Source: an uncultured Acidobacteriota bacterium
Lineage (GTDB): Bacteria; Acidobacteriota; Vicinamibacteria; Vicinamibacterales; UBA2999
DNA length: 64,000 nucleotides
Direction: 5' to 3'
Assembly (NCBI GenBank): GCA_963772955.1
Contig: CAVYZF010000003.1
Span: forward strand, 364,799-428,798
Translations under genes and position numbers: made by a program
Shown: positions 33,868 to 41,577 of the stretch, piece after piece
Layout of the letters: the number at the start of each line of letters is the position of its first letter
Position numbering within the stretch: position 1 is the stretch's first letter
The notes under the pieces: model-generated
What the model saw: the letters and a program-made list of their open reading frames with translations, nothing else
Told to the model about the DNA's origin: nothing
The model's database searches: none

Positions 33868-34130
33868 ATGACCGGCGATCCCGGAAACACCGCAGGCGGA
33901 ACGATGCACACGCTGGCGGGGGGATCAGCTTTCCCGACCACATGGTGGACGATGGTGATCGCCCGCCGTTCCCCCGGCCGTGGCTCGCTCCGCTCGGTGT
34001 CGCGCTGCGAGCTGGTCGCTTACGCTACGTTCGCCGCCGCGGGTATCCGGCTGACCAAGCGCAGGATCTCACGCAGGAGTTCTTCATCCGCGTGATGGAA
34101 GGCCGATATCTCGATCGCGCAACCGAAGGT
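33868..34130 (+). pseudogene. ECF-type sigma-70 factor remnant (region 2 only, frameshifted and 3'-truncated)
   Basis: SAFPTTWWTMVIA is in one frame and RYVRRRGYPADQAQDLTQEFFIRVMEGRYLDRA is in another. Both are typical of the N-terminal third of kinase-associated ECF sigma factors. Nothing sigma-like follows after about 34130. Confidence 0.55.
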
Positions 34131-34520
34131 CCCGCCCGCTGCGATTTTCACGAGCGCTCCCCCCTCCGCTTCGTAGTCCTGAGCGCCGGCAGCACTAGCC
34201 ACCTTGAAGCCGTTCTTCTGCAAGAGTTCCGCCGCTCGCACCGAGCGCGTCGAGTGATTCGAGACGGTGACGATCACGCGCTCTCGTGGAATCGATGGCA
34301 GTCGCGTCTCGAGATCGCCGATCTGCACATTCAGGTAGACGGGGAATCCGCCAATCGAACCGATCTCGTCTGGACGGCGCACGTCGATCACGAGAACATC
34401 CGCCGGCCTCGCGAGAAGCGCGTCAACCTCCGCGCGCGTGAGCACATTGACCGGCTGTTGCGCCTGGATCGCAACGGAAACAGACAGGAGCAGAACTATC
34501 GAGAGCAGTGTCCGAAACAT
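34020..34520 (-). CDS. Secreted rhodanese-domain sulfurtransferase (with aberrant 3' extension)
   Basis: Start MFRTLLSIVLLLSVSVAIQAQ (ATG 34520). The rhodanese core is LVIDVRRPDEIGSIGGFPVYLNVQIGDLETRLPSIPRERVIVTVSNHSTRSVRAAELLQKNGFKV. The last ~39 codons are antisense to the sigma-factor remnant. Confidence 0.78.
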   Translation of the reverse strand: MFRTLLSIVLLLSVSVAIQAQQPVNVLTRAEVDALLARPADVLVIDVRRPDEIGSIGGFPVYLNVQIGDLETRLPSIPRERVIVTVSNHSTRSVRAAELLQKNGFKVASAAGAQDYEAEGGALVKIAAGGTFGCAIEISAFHHADEELLREILRLVSRIPAAANVA

Positions 34521-34540: not shown

Positions 34541-34576
34541 AAGAAAAAGGCCCGGAAGCGTGAACCTCCGGGCCTT
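34541..34576 (-). terminator. Intrinsic terminator 20 nt upstream of the rhodanese ATG
   Basis: The minus strand reads GGCCCGGA-ggttcacgct-TCCGGGCC followed by TTTTTCTTT. Confidence 0.7.
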
Positions 34577-34609
34577 CGATCGGTGGCCGAGCCTGAATGA
34601 GATCAGGAG

Positions 34610-34714
34610 CTAAGGGCTTGAGATGAGGCCCTCCACCGCGCGCGTGTCGCCGGAGACACTTCTGCTGCTGCAACAACAACAGCAACAAGAGAGACGCGGG
34701 GCCGTGGGCATCAT
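34610..34714 (-). CDS. Polycysteine leader peptide (sORF, 34 aa; 36 aa if started at 34720)
   Basis: The minus strand reads ATG(34720) CCA ATG(34714) ATG CCC ACG GCC CCG CGT CTC TCT TGT TGC TGT TGT TGT TGC AGC AGC AGA ... CCT TAG, giving (MP)MMPTAPRLSCCCCCCSSRSVSGDTRAVEGLISSP*. The six consecutive Cys codons are at 34687-34670. Confidence 0.6.
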   Translation of the reverse strand: MMPTAPRLSCCCCCCSSRSVSGDTRAVEGLISSP

Positions 34715-34723
34715 TGGCATCAC

Positions 34724-34753
34724 TTTGTAGCGCACTGAACGAATCGTCGTCAA
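34724..34753 (-). promoter_or_regulatory. Sigma-70-like promoter for the polyCys leader and rhodanese
   Basis: The minus strand reads TTGACG (34753-34748), 18 nt, TACAAA (34729-34724). ATG 34714 lies 9 nt after the -10, which is leaderless-type geometry. Confidence 0.4.
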
Positions 34754-34770: not shown

Positions 34771-37170
34771 CTAGTCGGCCCTGAGCGCGACGATCGGATC
34801 CACGCGAAGCGCACGGCGTGCAGGCAGGTACACGGCAAGCACAACGACAGCGACAAGAAACAGCGTGGCGAGCATCAGGGCCGCGGGGTCGGTGGGCGTG
34901 ACACCATGGAGCAATCCGGCGAGCGTTCTGGCGAAGGCCATTGAGGCGGCGAGGCCAATCGCCACGCCACCGGCGGCAAGCAGAACAGTGCGGCGCATGA
35001 CGAGCCAGAGCACGGCGCCAGGTTGCGCACCGATGGCCACTCGCAAAGCGATCTCACTCGTGCGGCGCGCCACCCAGAACGCCACCACTCCGTACAGTCC
35101 CATTCCCGCGAGGAGCAGCGCGACCCCGGCGAAGCCGCCAAGCAGCTGCATTGCGAATCGTGGGCGTGACAAGTCGTCGGCAACGAAATCGGCAAGAGCG
35201 CGGACATCTGCAACCGGCTGATTGGGATCCAGCCGCCGGATCACACCGCTGACGATAGGCGCGACAGACGCGGCATCACCCGTCGACCGAACCGCCAACG
35301 CGAAATCACGCGTCGTCACCTGCGGAAACCACCAATAGGCGCTTGGCGGCGCATCCGCGGCCAGCCCGCCAAATCGGACACTGCCAACGATGCCGACGAC
35401 CCTTCCAGTCAGCGTCTCGTTGTTCCCGCGGTGCCACGTGAGATGCGCACCCACCGCATCTCCGCCGGGCCAGTAGCGGCGGGCCAGCAATTCGTCGATC
35501 ACGAACACCGGCTCACTCCGCTCGGTATCGTCGCGCCCCGGCAACCGGCCGCTGACGAGCGGGATCCCCATCGCCTCGAAGTACCGTCCGCCGACGATGC
35601 TGACCCACGAGAATTTCTGATCTTCGACGTGCGTCTCAGCACGCCCGTCTATCTCGAAGCGATTCGCCGCGCCGCCGCGGCTCATGGGCAGATAGTTGGC
35701 GAACCCGGCACGCGACACTTGCGGTTCGTTCTCGAGCAGACGCACGAGTTCCGCACCAAAGACTCGAATCTGCTCTTCGCGCGGATACGCGCCCTCGGAG
35801 AGTGCGGTCTTCATGGTGAGGACACGATCCGCATCGAAGCCGGGCGCGATGTGCGTCAGCTGCTGAACCGTGCGCGTCAGAAGGCCTGTGCCCGCGAGAA
35901 GCATGAGAGCAAACGCGACCTCGGCAACGATGATTGCGTTGGTGATTCTCGGGTGACGTTGACCCACGACGCCGCGCGTTGCACCTGGCGACGCGCCGCC
36001 GATTGCCATTCGCGATACTGAGACGATCCACATCGCCAACGCCGCGACAACTGTGACGACGAATGCGAAGCCAAGCGTCCGCAGGTTGACAATGATCTCC
36101 GTCGTTCGCGGGAGGTTCATGCCGGGAGAAATCAGCCCCTGAATGGCGTCTGTCCCCCACCAGGCCAACAGCATCCCCGCAGTCCCGCCGAGACTCGCGA
36201 GGGCGACACTCTCGAAAAACAGTTGCCGCACCAGGCGACCGTGGCTCGCGCCCAGCGACCAGCGAACGGCGAACTCTCCCTGCCGTGCCACACTGCGGCT
36301 GATCGCCAGATTGGCCACGTTCGCACACGCGATGAACAGCAGGAGCATCACCGCACCGAAGAGCGCAAGCAGCAACGGACGCGCGTCGCGCACTGTTGCT
36401 TCCAGAAGCGGAAGCGTCTGGATGCGCCAATCGTGGCTATAGGACGGAAACTGATCCTCGACACGTGCGGCGATCGCCGACAGGTCTGCTTGCGCCTGCT
36501 CGAGTGTGGCCCCCGATGCCAGGCGCCCGACAACGTGGAGATCGCCTCCCATCCCTACGAGTTCGCTCGGATCGAGGCGGAGAGGTTGCCACAACTCCGC
36601 GCGCGATTCGGCAAACTCGGTCGTGCGGATCGTAAAGGCCTGCGGCATGACGCCGACGATGGTCCGCGTCGCGCCATCGAGGACGATTGATTGGCCCACG
36701 ACATTCGGATCGCCTCCGAACCGCCGTTGCCACAAGCCATAGCTGAGGGCAACTTCGGGCGCGATCCGGCTCAGATCGCGTTCGGTCGTAAATGTGCGGC
36801 CGACGAGTGGAGGCGTTCCGAGCACGGCGAAGAAATTCGTGGTCGCATGGTCCGCAACAACCTGAACAGGCTCGCCGCGACCGGTCAGCGTCGCTCTGGC
36901 TTCGTGCCATCCCACCAGATCCGCAAACGTGCCGCTCTGGCGACGCCACTGATCCAGGTAGCCCCGCGACAGACGTGCGCCGGACGTCGGACGCAGCATG
37001 ACGAGCCGCTCCGGCTCCGGGAAACGCAGCGGGCGAAGCAGCACGGAATCGACGATGGCGAACATCGCAGTGCTCGCCCCGATGCCGAGTGCGAGCGTGG
37101 CAAGGGCCGCTAGAGCAAACGCAGGAGCGCGCCTGAGCAGACGTAGCGCGTAGCTGACGTCCTGTTTCAT
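34771..37170 (-). CDS. ADOP-family (MacB-like, duplicated FtsX) permease
   Basis: Start MKQDVSYALRLLRRAPAFALAALATLALGIGASTAMFAIVDSVLLRPLRFPEPERLVML (ATG 37170, ATGA overlap with the upstream stop). Duplicated MacB_PCD/FtsX architecture. Confidence 0.9.
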   Translation of the reverse strand: MKQDVSYALRLLRRAPAFALAALATLALGIGASTAMFAIVDSVLLRPLRFPEPERLVMLRPTSGARLSRGYLDQWRRQSGTFADLVGWHEARATLTGRGEPVQVVADHATTNFFAVLGTPPLVGRTFTTERDLSRIAPEVALSYGLWQRRFGGDPNVVGQSIVLDGATRTIVGVMPQAFTIRTTEFAESRAELWQPLRLDPSELVGMGGDLHVVGRLASGATLEQAQADLSAIAARVEDQFPSYSHDWRIQTLPLLEATVRDARPLLLALFGAVMLLLFIACANVANLAISRSVARQGEFAVRWSLGASHGRLVRQLFFESVALASLGGTAGMLLAWWGTDAIQGLISPGMNLPRTTEIIVNLRTLGFAFVVTVVAALAMWIVSVSRMAIGGASPGATRGVVGQRHPRITNAIIVAEVAFALMLLAGTGLLTRTVQQLTHIAPGFDADRVLTMKTALSEGAYPREEQIRVFGAELVRLLENEPQVSRAGFANYLPMSRGGAANRFEIDGRAETHVEDQKFSWVSIVGGRYFEAMGIPLVSGRLPGRDDTERSEPVFVIDELLARRYWPGGDAVGAHLTWHRGNNETLTGRVVGIVGSVRFGGLAADAPPSAYWWFPQVTTRDFALAVRSTGDAASVAPIVSGVIRRLDPNQPVADVRALADFVADDLSRPRFAMQLLGGFAGVALLLAGMGLYGVVAFWVARRTSEIALRVAIGAQPGAVLWLVMRRTVLLAAGGVAIGLAASMAFARTLAGLLHGVTPTDPAALMLATLFLVAVVVLAVYLPARRALRVDPIVALRAD

Positions 37171-37997
37171 TTGCGCGGGAGCGGCGGCGGCAACGGCGCG
37201 GGATCGATGTAGCCACGGGTGCCGTCGGGCCTGATCGGACCCGGTCCGAAACCGAGATGTGCCGCATCGACGTTGTTCTCGCTGCAGGCGTACTCCATGA
37301 TTTCTTCGTCGGGCTTCCCGAGTACCCACGTGCGCGAGTAGGTGAACGGACGCGTGTAGAACTTCGGATCCTCGATCAGCGTGTCGACGTGAATGTGGTC
37401 GGCATCAGGGCGCGTCCATCGCTCGACGACGTGCAATGCGTCACTGTGAGGGTTGGCGTTTTCGTCGATCCAGACCTTTTCGTCCTTGAAGCCGATCGAG
37501 TCGATGACGAGCGTGTCGCCTTCCCACTTGCCAAGCTCTTCCCCGAAGAAGGACGGATCGGGATCGTCCGAGTGCTTGCGGTTCGGATCGATCGGGATCA
37601 AACGGAAGTAGCTGTACCAATACAGAAACGCGATCTTGTTGTTGCCTTGCAGGACCTCGAACGGAAGACCACTGGCGTTGTGGCGCGGGATTCCACCGAT
37701 GATGCAGAGGCTCTCGGGATCGATCGTCGCCGTGAGATTGTGCTTGAGGGCGGCCTCTCCGGCCGGCGTCAGCGGCAGCTTCCACCCGGGTAGGTCCTTG
37801 CCGATGTTGCCGCCAGGCTTCGTATCGGTGGTGCCCTTCCAATAGCCGCTGAAGTCTGGCTTGCCGTTTGCCATTCGCGGCGTTGGTCGGTTCGACTTGA
37901 AGTCCGGCACCTGCATCTGCGCACGGGTCGCGATAGCAGAGAGCGCGAGCGCGAACAAAACAATTGCCGGTATGAGGCCCGCCCTCATCGCTGTCAT
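37167..37997 (-). CDS. Secreted hypothetical protein (family also at 51832..52812 and 52830..53633)
   Basis: Signal MTAMRAGLIPAIVLFALALSAIATRAQ. Shared pattern with the two later ORFs: G.W...., P.N/T..A, C....G.P, then G.W.G.TLV, then DP..Y..P. ATGA overlap with the DUF6152-like gene. Confidence 0.65.
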   Translation of the reverse strand: MTAMRAGLIPAIVLFALALSAIATRAQMQVPDFKSNRPTPRMANGKPDFSGYWKGTTDTKPGGNIGKDLPGWKLPLTPAGEAALKHNLTATIDPESLCIIGGIPRHNASGLPFEVLQGNNKIAFLYWYSYFRLIPIDPNRKHSDDPDPSFFGEELGKWEGDTLVIDSIGFKDEKVWIDENANPHSDALHVVERWTRPDADHIHVDTLIEDPKFYTRPFTYSRTWVLGKPDEEIMEYACSENNVDAAHLGFGPGPIRPDGTRGYIDPAPLPPPLPRK

Positions 37998-38392
37998 TGC
38001 GGCCCTCCGTCTCCGGCCGAGGCGCCCGAGACGATACGGCCGTCCGCGAGCGTCACACGACGGGCATCCATCAGGTTCGACCCGTTCTTCGCGCGATACC
38101 CGTCCACCACGATCGTGTCGCCGAGTTTGAGATCACCGCGCTTGAACCCGCGCCGGCTCAGCGCCCCGGGGGCACCCGACTCACAGGTCCACTTCACCGC
38201 GTTTCCCTGCTCGTCCTTCGCATCCAGGTAGAAGTAGATATGCGGATTGGTCCACTCCACCTTGGACAGCGTCCCGGTGACGCGAATCGCTTTGCTGGCA
38301 TCGAACTCCGCCGCAAACGAATGGTGTGCGAGCAGTTGAGCGCCACTTGCCGTGGCGACCGCCACAACGAGGAGCAACAGAATCTTCTTCAT
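37994..38392 (-). CDS. DUF6152-like small periplasmic protein
   Basis: MKKILLLLVVAVATASGAQLLAHHSFAAEFDASKAIRVTGTLSKVEWTNPHIYFYLDAKDEQGNAVKWTCESGAPGALSRRGFKRGDLKLGDTIVVDGYRAKNGS. The signal, AHHSF start and OB-like pattern fit this family as I recall it. Confidence 0.65.
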   Translation of the reverse strand: MKKILLLLVVAVATASGAQLLAHHSFAAEFDASKAIRVTGTLSKVEWTNPHIYFYLDAKDEQGNAVKWTCESGAPGALSRRGFKRGDLKLGDTIVVDGYRAKNGSNLMDARRVTLADGRIVSGASAGDGGPQ

Positions 38393-38424
38393 GCCCTACA
38401 CCATACCCCCGGCTTACCCCCTTT

Positions 38425-38453
38425 TTGCGTTCCTGGCGGCTGGCAGGTAGAAT
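38425..38453 (+). promoter_or_regulatory. Sigma-70-like promoter of the cys leader/cysDNH operon
   Basis: TTGCGT (38425-38430), 17 nt, TAGAAT (38448-38453). The sORF ATG at 38463 lies 9 nt downstream. Confidence 0.55.
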
Positions 38454-38462
38454 CTAGTTTCG

Positions 38463-38534
38463 ATGTCCGCCCGAATCTGTCGCCTTTGCGTTTGCTGCTG
38501 TTGTAGCAGGACCTGTAATGGGTCCCCGAGGTGA
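38463..38534 (+). CDS. Polycysteine leader peptide (sORF, 23 aa)
   Basis: ATG TCC GCC CGA ATC TGT CGC CTT TGC GTT TGC TGC TGT TGT AGC AGG ACC TGT AAT GGG TCC CCG AGG TGA gives MSARICRLCVCCCCSRTCNGSPR*. It has 7 Cys, four of them consecutive (38493-38504). Confidence 0.65.
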   Translation: MSARICRLCVCCCCSRTCNGSPR

Positions 38535-38588
38535 CGATCCGGCAATTGGGTGAATAGCAGAACAACCCAGAAACACGCTACGCGATCG

Positions 38589-38620
38589 AAGCCCGGGGAA
38601 ACGAACCCGGGCTTTTTTAT
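38589..38620 (+). terminator. Intrinsic terminator 17 nt upstream of the cysD ATG
   Basis: aaGCCCGGG-gaaacgaa-CCCGGGCtt followed by a T6 run (38613-38618). Confidence 0.8.
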
Positions 38621-38636
38621 TGCTCGTCTTAGGAAT

Positions 38637-39575
38637 ATGTCGACAGTGACCCTGACCCCTAGCTCGACCGTCGCCTCCCGCCTCGACCATCTGCGGGCAC
38701 TCGAGGCGGAGAGCATTCACATCTTCCGCGAGGTCGTCGCCGAGTTCGAACGGCCGGTGATGCTCTACTCCATCGGCAAGGACTCGTCGGTCCTGCTGCG
38801 GCTTGCGCAGAAGGCGTTCTACCCGGGTCCGATTCCCTTTCCCCTGCTTCACGTCGATACCACCTACAAGTTCCGCGAAATGATCGAGTTCCGTGACGAG
38901 ATGGCCCGTTCTGTCGGCGCCCGGCTGATCGTCCACACGAACGAGGAAGCGATCGCGGACGGCACGCAGCCCTTCAAGGTCGGCACGCAGCGCTGCTGCG
39001 GCCTGCTCAAGACGAAGTCGCTGCTCGATGCGCTCCAGGCCGGGAACTTCGACGCGGCCATCGGCGGCGCCCGCCGCGACGAGGAGCGCTCGCGCGCCAA
39101 AGAGCGCATCTTCTCCGTGCGCGATCCGAATGGACAGTGGGACCCGAAGCGTCAGCGTCCCGAGCTCTGGACGCTGCTCAACGCGAAGCTGCGGCCCGGC
39201 GAGAGCATCCGGGTGTTCCCGCTCTCGAACTGGACGGAAATCGACGTGTGGAACTACATCCACGCCGAGAACATCCCGATCGTGCCGCTCTACTTCGCAA
39301 GGGAGCGCGAGGTGATCGTCCGTGGCGCCTCGCTCATCGTCCAGGAACAACCGTTCGTCGTGACGATGCCCGGAGAGAAGCCGCAGGTGGTCAAGTGCCG
39401 CATGCGCTCGCTCGGTTGCTCACCATGCACGGGCGCCATCAAGTCCGACGCAGATACGGTGCCCAAGATCATCGAAGAGCTGATCGCGACGCGCCAGTCC
39501 GAACGTCAGCTGCGCATCATCGATCACGACCAGGACGGCTCGATGGAGTTGAAGAAGCGGGAAGGCTACTTCTGA
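38637..39575 (+). CDS. cysD: Sulfate adenylyltransferase subunit 2
   Basis: Start [61 protein letters not shown] (ATG 38637). PAPS-reductase-like fold, ending ...[10 protein letters not shown]. Confidence 0.95.
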
Positions 39576-40908
39576 TGCCGGAACTGGGAACCCGGACCAT
39601 GGAATCCAGCCTCCTGAGAATCTGCACGGCCGGCAGCGTGGACGATGGAAAGAGCACGCTGATTGGGCGGTTACTCCACGATTCGCAGTCGGTCTACGAA
39701 GACCAGGTGGCGTCGGTCGCCAAGGCGTCGAAGAATCGCAACGCCGGGCCCATCGACTTCTCGCTGTTCACCGACGGCCTGCGCGCCGAGCGCGAACAGG
39801 GCATCACGATCGACGTCGCGTATCGCTACTTCGCCACCGCGCGCCGCAAGTTCATCCTCGCGGACACACCCGGTCACGAGCAGTACACGCGGAACATGGC
39901 AACGGGCGCATCAACCGCCGACGTCGCCATTCTGCTCATCGACGCGCGCAACGGCGTCCGGACGCAGTCGAAGCGGCATGCACGCATCGCACGCCTGCTC
40001 GGCATCACCAACTTCGTGCTCGCCATCAACAAGATGGACCTCGTCGACTTCGATCGCGAGGTCTACGAGAAGATCCTGGACGACTTCAGCGAGTTCCTCA
40101 CCGGCGCCGCGGTACATGCGATTCCGATGAGCGCGCTCGAGGGCGACAACGTCATCACGCGCAGCGAGCGCACGCCGTACTTCGACGGCCCCCCGCTGCT
40201 CGAGTTCCTCGAGACCGTGCAGGTCCATCGCAACCTGCCGGCGGCGCCGTTCCGCTTCCCGGTGCAGATGGTGCTTCGTCCCGACCACGAGTTCCGCGGA
40301 TACGCGGGGCAGATCGTGTCGGGCAGCGTCAGAACCGGCGATCGCATCACCGCCTGGCCCTCCGGCCGCAGCGCTCGCGTCAAGCGCATCGTCACCTACG
40401 ACGGCGACCTGGCTATGGGCTTCGCGCCGATGTCGGTGACGCTGACGCTGGACGACGAGATCGACATCAGTCGCGGCGACGTGCTGACGGTGGAACCGGC
40501 GTTCGTCGGACAGAAATTCGAGGCGGAGCTGGTGTGGATGGACGAGCGGCCGCTGGATCCGGGTCGCGTGTACCTGCTGAAGCACGGCACGCGCACCGTG
40601 ACGGCCGAAGTCAATCACGCGCTCGTGCTGAATCAGATCGGCAACGTCCAGATCTCGACGGCACGACCGCTCGTGTTCGATCGCTACGCTGAGAATCGCG
40701 CCACCGGCAGCTTCATCCTGATCGATCCGGCCACGCAGTTCACCTGCGGCGCGGGGATGATCACCGATCCGCTTGCGTGCGAGCCGTCGAAGTGCAGGGG
40801 GCGCCGCTCACGTTCGCTCAGCGCCTGGCGCACATCGCACGGCGGGCGGCGTCGGATGAAGAGGCCGCCGAGGCCGTGCGCAAGGCGCTCGAGGAGATGC
40901 TCACATGA
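39575..40908 (+). pseudogene. cysN: Sulfate adenylyltransferase subunit 1 (GTPase), apparent -1 nt frameshift in a G5 run near 40797-40801
   Basis: The ATG overlaps the cysD stop (TGATG). G-domain motifs GSVDDGKST, DTPGHEQY and NKMD are present, and the sequence is intact through ...TCGAGMITDPL. The original frame then runs Arg-rich with no stop until 41326. The neighbouring frame reads ...GAPLTFAQRLAHIARRAASDEEAAEAVRKALEEMLT* and stops at 40906-40908, overlapping the cysH ATG. Confidence 0.85.
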
Positions 40909-41577
40909 CCCGGGATTCGGGACTCGGGGTTCGAGATTCGAACCTCGTGAATCAAGCGAGACACACGGTCGAAGACGCGTTGGCCAGCGCCCAGACGCCC
41001 TGCATCACGTCGAGCTTTCAGGCCGAGTGCGTGGTGCTCACGCACATGCTGCGCGAGGTTCGTCCCGACATCCCGGTGCTGTTCCTCGATACGTTCCATC
41101 ACTTCGAGCAGACGCTGACCTATCGCGACGAGCTCAGTGCGCGCTGGGGATTGAATCTGATCAACCTTGCGCGCGCAGACGCCGAGCGTCGGGTTGTGGC
41201 AGGCCGAGAGCACTGAGGCGTGCTGCAAGCGTCACAAGGTGGAGCCGCTGTTCGCTGCACTCGAAGGCTACGACACCTGGTTCACGGCGCTGCGGCGCGA
41301 TCAGTCGCCGTCACGCGCGAACCTGAAGGAAGTGGAGCCGTTCAATCTCCCGGGGCGGACCATCTCACGCGTCGCGCCGATTGCTGGCTGGACGGCGCGC
41401 GACGTGTGGGCGTACGCGAAGGCGCACGACATTCCGCTGCTGCCGCTCTACGAACTGGGCTACACGAGCATCGGCTGCGAGCCGTGCACGGCACTGCCCT
41501 TCGATCCGGAAAACCCGCGCTCGGGCCGCTGGCAGGGCCAGAAGCTCGAATGCGGGATTCACATCCAGGCGAAGTAA
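40905..41577 (+). pseudogene. cysH: Adenylyl-sulfate (APS/PAPS) reductase, apparent +1 nt frameshift near 41166-41169
   Basis: The 40905 frame (...PVLFLDTFHHFEQTLTYRDELSARWGLNLINL) stops at 41216. The sequence continues in the 41167 frame (RAQTPSVGLWQAESTEACCKRHKVEPL...YTSIGCEPCT...KLECGIHIQAK*). The CC...CXXC cysteines suggest an Fe-S APS-reductase type. Confidence 0.85.
40909..40945. repeat. Tandem 7-nt repeat (GGGATTC-type, reverse orientation of the 6276 repeat) at the cysH 5' end
   Basis: Reads cc cgggatt cgggact cggggtt cgagatt cgaacc and encodes TRDSGLGVRDSNL. Confidence 0.7.

Follow-up and report, generated by a model that had tools for sequence, protein, structure and literature searches.

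What controls sulfate assimilation in a bacterium whose sulfate adenylyltransferase operon begins 18 nucleotides (nt) behind a transcription terminator? This question is raised by a 64,000-nt stretch of DNA from an uncultured soil bacterium of the Acidobacteriota (contig CAVYZF010000003.1), which is called the window throughout. In the window, cysD and cysN, whose products carry out the first step of the pathway to cysteine, are preceded by a promoter-like element, a short open reading frame (sORF) rich in Cys codons and an intrinsic terminator. An earlier note, made from the sequence of the window, had proposed that these elements form a cysteine-sensing attenuator. We found this arrangement to be real and the interpretation to be essentially right, with the corrections given below. 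The cysD leader is most probably a ribosome-mediated leader-peptide transcription attenuator, which would most likely couple cysDN to the supply of charged tRNA-Cys. As judged from its sequence, it combines a polycysteine, probably leaderless, leader open reading frame (ORF) with classical terminator/antiterminator control, and each genome probably has several leaders of this kind.

The sORF was found as the earlier note had described it, with 23 codons, 7 of which are Cys codons. Four of these are consecutive, and isolated ones lie at 38478, 38487 and 38514 (Table 1). The ATG is located 9 nt past the -10 box, and a Shine-Dalgarno sequence is absent. The predicted intrinsic terminator between the sORF and cysD was likewise confirmed. 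Its stem of 9-10 bp (10 pairs, 7 of them G-C) has a folding energy of -20.4 kcal/mol, and the distance between the T-run and the cysD ATG leaves, as claimed, no room for another promoter. The gene upstream is divergent; the hairpin therefore lies in the 5′ leader of cysD and cannot terminate an upstream transcript. An AGGA Shine-Dalgarno-like sequence ahead of cysD (38631-38634) is unpaired in the minimum free energy (MFE) fold.

The same fold contains a hairpin that was not part of the earlier account. This hairpin 1:2 begins 5 nt past the last codon of the Cys run, so that a stalled ribosome of the assumed footprint would disrupt it. An antiterminator had been proposed on the basis of the complementarity of TCCCCG (38523-38528) to CGGGGA (38594-38599). 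The complementarity exists; however, these 6 bp are only the core of a pairing of about 13-16 bp that consists of three sub-helices (UCCCCG:CGGGGA, GGU:GCC and CGAUC:GAUCG). The GGUCC strand is common to the hairpin and the antiterminator, and the GCCCGGGG strand is common to the antiterminator and the terminator, which is the same arrangement of segments 1-2-3-4 as in the trp leader. The stop codon of the sORF sits within the 5′ strand of the antiterminator, in agreement with the earlier suggestion that a terminating ribosome would mask this strand. The leader thus carries every defining sequence feature of trp/his-type attenuators. In the fold of the free leader (38469-38543), 38527-38543 is paired with the opening codons of the sORF (about 38469-38486), and this pairing encloses a hairpin over the Cys run (GCUGCU/AGCAGG) as well as the GGACC/GGUCC hairpin; in this folding model, it would act as a second lock on the antiterminator strand.

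Table 1. Coordinates of the elements discussed in the text. Positions refer to the window, except those preceded by a locus label, which refer to related genomes.
Feature	Position	Strand	Details
Promoter-like element	38425-38453	+	-35 TTGCGT 38425-38430, 17-nt spacer, -10 TAGAAT 38448-38453
Leader sORF, 23 codons	38463 (ATG)..38534 (TGA 38532-38534)	+	MSARICRLCVCCCCSRTCNGSPR; sequence reading
Regulatory run of four Cys codons	38493-38504	+	TGC TGC TGT TGT, codons 11-14 of the sORF
Hairpin 1:2 (predicted anti-antiterminator)	38509..38525	+	GGACC 38509-38513 with GGUCC 38521-38525; MFE fold
Predicted antiterminator, 5′ strand	38523..38539	+	UCCCCG 38523-38528, GGU 38530-38532, CGAUC 38535-38539; mask folds, pair counts, permutation test
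Predicted antiterminator, 3′ strand	38584..38599	+	GAUCG 38584-38588, GCC 38591-38593, CGGGGA 38594-38599; overlaps terminator 5′ arm
Intrinsic terminator	38589..38618	+	AAGCCCGGG 38589-38597 with CCCGGGCTT (= CCCGGGCUU) 38606-38614; 8-nt loop; U6 38613-38618
cysD, sulfate adenylyltransferase subunit 2	38637..39575	+	NCBIfam NF009214, 463 bits; Pfam PAPS_reduct
cysN, sulfate adenylyltransferase subunit 1	39575..41326	+	TIGR02034 CysN, 541 bits
Upstream gene, DUF6152	37994-38392		Divergent from cysD
Second polycysteine leader	34543..34753	-	-35 TTGACG 34753-34748, -10 TACAAA 34729-34724
Rhodanese-like gene	34020..34520	-	Pfam Rhodanese, 22.4 bits (cutoff 22.2)
Polycysteine sORFs at TauE/SafE-type permease genes, related genomes	L010 2235-2330; L020 1809-1955; L028 2629-2709; L043 1780-1920	-; +; -; +	
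Polycysteine sORF ahead of redoxin/DsbD_N protein gene, related genome	L009 2464-2571	-	

The earlier note had staked its claim on the presence of a Cys-rich sORF and a terminator in the orthologous leaders of relatives, a refutation test that was set beforehand. The outcome was strongly positive and yielded a family of 27 leaders. We sampled the closest 80 cysD loci, with one genome per species, and 78 of them entered the upstream test, in which sORFs of up to 60 codons with a run of at least three Cys codons were sought within 450 nt upstream of cysD. The fetched loci were labelled as Acidobacteriota metagenome-assembled genomes (MAGs) in nearly all cases and as Gemmatimonadota or other in a few. 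A polycysteine sORF was present in 43/78 of the acidobacterial loci, compared to 20 of 1610 control windows taken from these loci (1.2%) and 3/78 reverse complements; several of the control positives proved to be additional leaders of this type. The nearest relatives were Vicinamibacterales MAGs (up to 98% CysD identity), which bears out the "Acidobacteria-like" lineage given in the earlier note. One locus, L027 (contig CAYNUO010000081.1), is labelled "uncultured Bifidobacteriaceae" and combines a Vicinamibacterales-like cysD (84% identity) with an acidobacterial leader; this contig has probably been binned or labelled wrongly.

Based on 22 leaders, a covariance model gave 27 full-length members at E <= 1.6e-10. 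These Vicinamibacterales-type leaders share a conserved TTG, a TAGAAT-like -10 box, an ATG or GTG start, a Cys-rich peptide and, from 5 nt past the last codon of the Cys run, the GGACC...GGUCC hairpin. After the hairpin, the order is GGUCCCCG-CGCU-CGGUC, the stop codon, a variable spacer and GAUCG-AA(A)-GCCCGGG(GACC), which supplies the 5′ arm of the terminator, before the 3′ arm and a U-run complete it. The sORF of most relatives ends about 18 nt farther downstream than that of the window. A terminator hairpin with a T-run was found in 25/25 leaders that were folded singly, with energies of -16 to -25 kcal/mol.

Conservation of the two alternative structures was analyzed next to each other. 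In the MAFFT alignments (A1 and A2), two subgroups of terminator arms were one base out of register. Column counts on these alignments were therefore avoided, and per-sequence folding, partner permutation and a covariance-model alignment were used instead. Pairs were counted on the model alignment, which had been fitted to the hairpin and the terminator only and not to the antiterminator. For the OFF structure (hairpin 1:2 plus terminator), pairing amounted to 92.8%, both sides had changed in 6 pairs, and 0/500 shuffles reached this value; the model alignment (A4) still shifts the subgroup of the window by one base in the terminator, so 92.8% is, if anything, an underestimate. Taken separately, hairpin 1:2 was 94.8% paired in the 27 sequences, with 3/5 pairs changed on both sides, and the terminator was 91.8% paired. 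For the ON structure, the antiterminator, 83.3% pairing was obtained over 15 pairs in the same 27 sequences, and 7/15 pairs were changed on both sides (in the second sub-helix, for example, the middle pair goes from C:G to G:C). Its covariation score was 0.210 versus 0.131 in shuffles (0/500 as high), and sliding the partner strand by one base reduced the pairing to 51-53%. An alignment-free comparison gave the same picture. Duplexes of antiterminator strands with their own partners had a mean energy of -23.45 kcal/mol compared to -20.56 +/- 0.55 kcal/mol for permuted partners, and none of the 10,000 permutations was as low.

The effect of ribosome position on the choice between the structures was modelled by mask folding. 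A block of 30 nt (assumed footprint, -15 to +14 nt) was placed on the RNA, the terminator was left without its 3′ arm in imitation of nascent RNA, and the energy that the 5′ arm of the terminator won through upstream pairing was taken as the antiterminator gain. The mean gain of 25 leaders was -15.8 kcal/mol with the block on the Cys run, -8.5 kcal/mol without a block and -9.0 kcal/mol with the block at the stop codon. The respective values for the leader in the window were -19.4, -6.7 and -12.7 kcal/mol. When the block covered the Cys run, the same three-part antiterminator formed in nearly all leaders, and in the window the full-length equilibrium fold lost the terminator. The proposal that a ribosome on the Cys codons frees the antiterminator and a ribosome at the stop codon does not was thus upheld by the mean gains (-15.8 versus -9.0 kcal/mol). 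The mask folds indicate that the design is coherent and do not by themselves demonstrate its operation.

The mechanism that we infer from these elements, from the transcription start and the translation of the sORF to ribosome stalling and the response to cysteine, would operate as follows. Transcription would start a few bases past TAGAAT, which would place the 5′ end of the mRNA at the AUG of the sORF or no more than about 3 nt from it, and a ribosome would load without a Shine-Dalgarno sequence. With ample Cys-tRNA, this ribosome would pass the Cys codons, reach the UGA and cover the 5′ strand of the antiterminator; in most relatives, in which the stop codon lies further downstream, the GGACC/GGUCC hairpin would re-form behind the ribosome. 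The terminator would then fold, and transcription would halt 18 nt ahead of cysD. When Cys-tRNA is scarce, the ribosome would stall on the four Cys codons with its footprint over GGACC, and the freed UCCCCG/GGU/CGAUC strand could pair with GAUCG/GCC/CGGGGA as the latter is transcribed. This pairing would sequester the 5′ arm of the terminator and allow RNA polymerase to read into cysDN. If the sORF were not translated, termination would occur by default.

In 21/27 of the related leaders, the start codon of the sORF lies 8-12 nt beyond the -10 box without a Shine-Dalgarno sequence. As read from this spacing only, the mRNA of the sORF would be leaderless or near-leaderless, since a short fixed distance from the -10 box leaves few untranslated bases. 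In three Acidobacteria sequenced by 2011, 9.7-19.4% of genes have been predicted to be leaderless (PMC3160421).

Several observations weigh against the attenuator model. The -35 box TTGCGT matches only 3/6 consensus positions, and the promoter was absent from the calls of a consensus scan. Thus, of the "good sigma-70-type promoter" in the earlier note, the hexamers and the 17-nt spacing stand, while "good" is an overstatement; support for the promoter comes from the conservation of TTG and a TAGAAT-like -10 box among relatives. The ATG follows the -10 box at 9 nt, compared to a usual transcription start about 7 nt after it, which makes strict leaderlessness uncertain, and the start codon of the related leaders is more often GTG than ATG. 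The Cys-codon run can also be read as Leu codons in the +2 frame, and the TGT/TGC variation alone cannot fix the frame. The shuffle statistics of both structures (0/500) overstate independence, as the sequences are related. The outcome of the mask folds depends on the assumed footprint and on thermodynamic models. With the stalled mask, the terminator still won at equilibrium in 21/25 leaders; a kinetic choice, like that of classical attenuators, would therefore be required. Finally, for the Acidobacteriaceae and Terracidiphilus-type leaders described below, a crude mask test did not bring out a clear antiterminator specific to the stalled ribosome. Our claim to the detailed mechanism is therefore restricted to the Vicinamibacterales-type family.

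The alternative that survives best accepts the terminator as a real attenuator that responds to another signal, via a riboswitch, an RNA-binding protein or a small RNA, with the Cys-rich ORF as a by-product of a conserved RNA. Nucleotide-level conservation indeed extends over much of the leader and includes UGUUGUUGU and AGGACC, the fold of the free leader is clearly more stable than those of shuffled controls (z = -3.17), and the tail of the peptide is not conserved. However, the leader is built of simple hairpins and shows no complex conserved fold of the kind that forms a ligand pocket. A cmscan search of 38000-39000 against Rfam at E <= 10 returned three chance-level hits far below the gathering scores, and a known riboswitch or known leader family was dropped as a candidate on these grounds. 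The Cys frame, moreover, is the sole consistently bounded ORF in 27/27 leaders, whereas starts and stops are erratically placed in the other two frames. It opens 24-48 nt ahead of the run, at a fixed distance from the -10 box, and its stop usually lies 54 nt past the run. The length of the run varies between 2 and 6 codons among relatives, in whole-codon steps and always in frame, and isolated Cys codons flank it; the resulting peptides of 22-31 residues contain 4-9 Cys in most cases, with the pattern C-x-C-x-CCC(C). Leader families of unrelated sequence share only the in-frame Cys run and, in most cases, a terminator. We therefore consider control by another signal unlikely.

A second possibility is that the sORF is an independent gene for a Cys-rich micropeptide (e.g., for metal binding or redox functions), that the hairpin is its terminator, and that cysDN is expressed from elsewhere. 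Peptides of this size and Cys content are conserved in many genomes, and a separate peptide function has not been excluded in the mycobacterial counterparts discussed below. The 18 nt between the T-run and the cysD ATG, on the other hand, would have to hold a promoter, and the non-Cys residues are not conserved between families. A comparison with the closely related locus L001 (98% CysD identity; sORF start at 2828) was informative in this respect. A 1-nt indel just past the Cys run changes the tail of the peptide and moves the stop by 18 nt, such that the peptide ends in ...CNGSPR in the window (23 aa; compared at 38514-38534) and in ...CKGPQGDDLAIG in L001 (29 aa), while the RNA sequence is nearly unchanged. 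Past the Cys run, selection thus appears to act on the RNA and not on the peptide. Furthermore, the residues that follow the run (R-T) coincide with an arm of the RNA hairpin, the antiterminator covaries with the terminator arm, and at several loci the element is linked to genes of sulfur metabolism. A free-standing micropeptide gene is accordingly an improbable explanation.

Still less plausible is that leucine and not cysteine is sensed. Shifted to the +2 frame, a TGY run becomes a series of YTG Leu codons; the window has TTG CTG CTG TTG TAG (38492-38506) open in this frame, which reads L-L-L-L-stop. In the window, however, neither ATG nor GTG opens this frame downstream of the promoter, and its stop lies anywhere from +8 to +1088 nt in relatives. 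For the isolated Cys codons, the Leu frame offers no equivalent, and the controlled genes are those of sulfur assimilation. The Leu-frame reading of the codon run was rejected on this ORF structure, and we regard leucine sensing as very improbable. Codon choice in the leaders is distinct from that of the genes they precede, with an enrichment of the rare TGT: the leader Cys codons comprise 116 TGT and 71 TGC versus 7 TGT and 133 TGC in cysD of the same genomes (p = 2e-29), and the long ORFs of the window (63.6% G+C) contain 249 TGC versus 107 TGT. Together with the bounded Cys frame, the whole-codon steps in run length and the start at a fixed distance from the -10 box, this codon bias lends indirect support to translation of the sORF in the Cys frame. 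A functionless chance co-occurrence of ORF and hairpin, for which one could cite the eight runs of at least three Cys codons in the six frames of the window and terminator-like hits no commoner than in shuffled sequence, is effectively excluded by the comparative data, namely conservation in at least 27 genomes, the 43/78 loci versus 1.2% in controls, the covariation seen in each of the two structures and the presence of a second leader in the window.

The genes behind the attenuator form a cysD-cysN operon. The earlier note had named it cysDNH; cysD and cysN were confirmed, and they overlap at 39573-39577 (cysD stop and cysN ATG at 39575), whereas cysH was not found and the genes after cysN are located on the opposite strand. 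The last ~190 aa of the CysN ORF (40751-41326) are without a Pfam match, and neither an APS kinase (CysC) nor a CysH domain was detected there with Pfam. Pfam and NCBIfam likewise gave no cysH or PAPS/APS reductase domain in the CysN ORF or its C-terminal part.

Runs of at least four Cys codons occur only twice in the six frames of the 64-kb window. Both are followed, within about 55-85 nt, by GATCGAAG(G)CCCGG...CCGGG(C)CTTTT, of which the 64 kb contain only these two copies. The GATCGAAGCCCGG motif also occurs only twice in the window, each time after a polycysteine sORF, and the two associated terminators are the two best terminator-like sites within 26-46 kb. The second leader lies on the minus strand. 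Its sORF starts at ATG 34714, nine bases past the -10 box (alternative ATG, 34720), ends at TAG 34612-34610 and has six consecutive Cys codons (34687-34670). The stem of its terminator (34577-34546, GATCGAAGGCCCGG...CCGGGCCTTTTT, followed by a T-run) opens with the motif shared with the cysD leader, and the covariance model of the cysD leaders matched it with an E value of 7e-5. In mask folds, the antiterminator gain was -11.4 kcal/mol for the stalled ribosome, -5.9 kcal/mol without a ribosome and -6.0 kcal/mol at the stop codon.

The gene listed as the predicted target of the second leader encodes a rhodanese-like protein, the N-terminus of which reads like a predicted signal peptide. An orthologous second leader is present in L001 (1372-1482, minus strand). 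Among metagenome relatives of the rhodanese-like gene, a polycysteine sORF was found upstream in 2/71, and in the closest of these relatives the gene sits behind another gene in an operon. The second leader, seen only in the window and L001, is therefore lineage-specific. The distance from the rhodanese leader to the cysD leader is about 1.3 kb in L001 compared to 3.7 kb in the window, where a MacB/FtsX-type ABC permease gene lies between both leaders (region 34771-37329); the gene order of this neighbourhood thus differs between very close relatives.

Polycysteine sORFs were not confined to cysD. They also precede genes of TauE/SafE-family permeases, some of which lie upstream of cysD and are codirectional while others are divergent, and in one case a gene for a redoxin/DsbD_N protein (Table 1). 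One of the TauE/SafE-type permease loci is labelled Gemmatimonadaceae, and L043 and L053 are labelled Gemmatimonadota. Upstream of cysD, at least four other acidobacterial leader families of unrelated sequence contain a polycysteine sORF, and three of these have their own terminator. The peptide of the Acidobacteriaceae leaders begins with MQxMHYPAGCCCCDKCC..., that of the Terracidiphilus-type leaders with MALCCSMPVACCACCC..., and that of the "Angelobacter" leaders contains ...CCCPAEVCLASCC.... These three other-clade leaders (L060-L078; L062/L069/L075/L077; L057/L059) lie ~100-300 nt upstream of cysD and have terminators of -17 to -22 kcal/mol.

The fourth family (L022, L024, L029, L038 and L042), ~270-400 nt upstream of the cysD match, has a peptide of the form M..CCCRRCL..CRCTCTVPATSR and a TTGACA-17-TACGxT promoter; a terminator was not obvious. 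In L022 and L029, a hairpin covers GGGAG just before the candidate start codon (CTCCGCGC...GCGCGGGAG in L022). By analogy, this family could represent a translational variant like the mycobacterial one. Taken together, these leaders raise the possibility of a phylum-wide "cysteine ribulon" in Acidobacteriota and apparently Gemmatimonadota. It would consist of non-homologous, apparently independently evolved and probably leaderless polycysteine leaders, each with its own terminator, ahead of cysDN, TauE/SafE-type permease, rhodanese-like and thiol-disulfide genes. The ribosome, and not a CysB-like transcription factor, would be the main cysteine sensor of bacteria that are among the most abundant in soil, and the cysD leader would represent the first polycysteine attenuator that acts by intrinsic termination. 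We hold the odds of this broader proposal to be even.

Classical leader-peptide attenuators control the trp, his, leu, thr, pheA and ilv operons of Proteobacteria. Like them, the acidobacterial leader has a leader ORF with tandem codons for the end product, directly followed by a hairpin, mutually exclusive antiterminator and terminator structures, predicted termination by default and the first structural gene close behind. In contrast to them, it would sense cysteine, occurs in Acidobacteriota and lacks similarity to Rfam leaders; its leader ORF, located 8-12 nt past the -10 box, has no Shine-Dalgarno sequence, and the mRNA is probably leaderless or nearly so.

The closest precedent in terms of the sensing ORF comes from mycobacteria, as the earlier note had correctly stated. 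Polycysteine leaderless sORFs of mycobacteria were found by experiment to be cysteine-responsive (Canestrari et al. 2020, bioRxiv 10.1101/834739 / Mol Microbiol 114:93), and in the case studied a ribosome-binding site is unmasked without a terminator being involved, as part of a multi-locus "Cys ribulon" (bioRxiv 10.1101/834739). In both phyla, unannotated ORFs with consecutive Cys codons are placed at the (in Acidobacteriota, predicted) extreme 5′ end of mRNAs for cysteine or sulfur operons, at several (in Acidobacteriota, probably several) independent loci per genome, and stalling is proposed to relieve repression. The acidobacterial leaders differ in that an intrinsic terminator and an antiterminator are conserved and the Shine-Dalgarno region of cysD is unpaired in folds. 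They belong to another phylum and have no evident homology to the mycobacterial sORFs, which are an experimental system, whereas the acidobacterial one is known through its sequence.

Two further cases were predicted computationally. The uORFC-8-2 motif upstream of cysS in Rhodobacterales is a predicted attenuator (Brewer et al. 2021, RNA Biol, PMC8632094). It shares with the acidobacterial leader tandem Cys codons in an upstream ORF (uORF) and a terminator stem followed by a U-run. The Cys codons of uORFC-8-2, two in number and located at positions 14-15, are part of the first stem, whereas the acidobacterial run occupies codons 11-14 and is followed by a conserved hairpin. The motif controls a cysteinyl-tRNA synthetase of Alphaproteobacteria and not sulfate activation, and its description does not indicate a leaderless uORF. 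Candidate Cys leader peptides of actinobacterial cys/cbs operons were identified by comparative genomics (Seliverstov et al. 2005, PMC1262725). These are also short ORFs with Cys-codon runs ahead of cysteine-biosynthesis operons. However, a conserved terminator hairpin is missing, and the mechanism was left open, with Rho-dependent termination suggested (PMC1262725); in the acidobacterial leader, both the terminator and the antiterminator are explicit. A description of such a leader in Acidobacteria was not found in the literature searched, which covers few papers from subscription journals, and a 2010 survey listed almost no attenuators with an assigned function in Acidobacteria (PMC2965389).

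The mechanism proposed here is textbook attenuation; it overturns no concept and is useful rather than conceptually surprising. It carries the idea of the cysteine-sensing sORF, which in mycobacteria works at the level of translation, into a second phylum and joins it to terminator/antiterminator logic. The analysis also flags unannotated short ORFs that gene callers overlook. A polycysteine sORF right past a -10 box, followed by a terminator, may serve as a signature for sulfur-responsive genes in uncultured genomes. Acidobacteria are hard to culture and have been little studied genetically. For this dominant soil group, the cysD leader would provide a concrete and testable mechanism for the control of sulfate assimilation.

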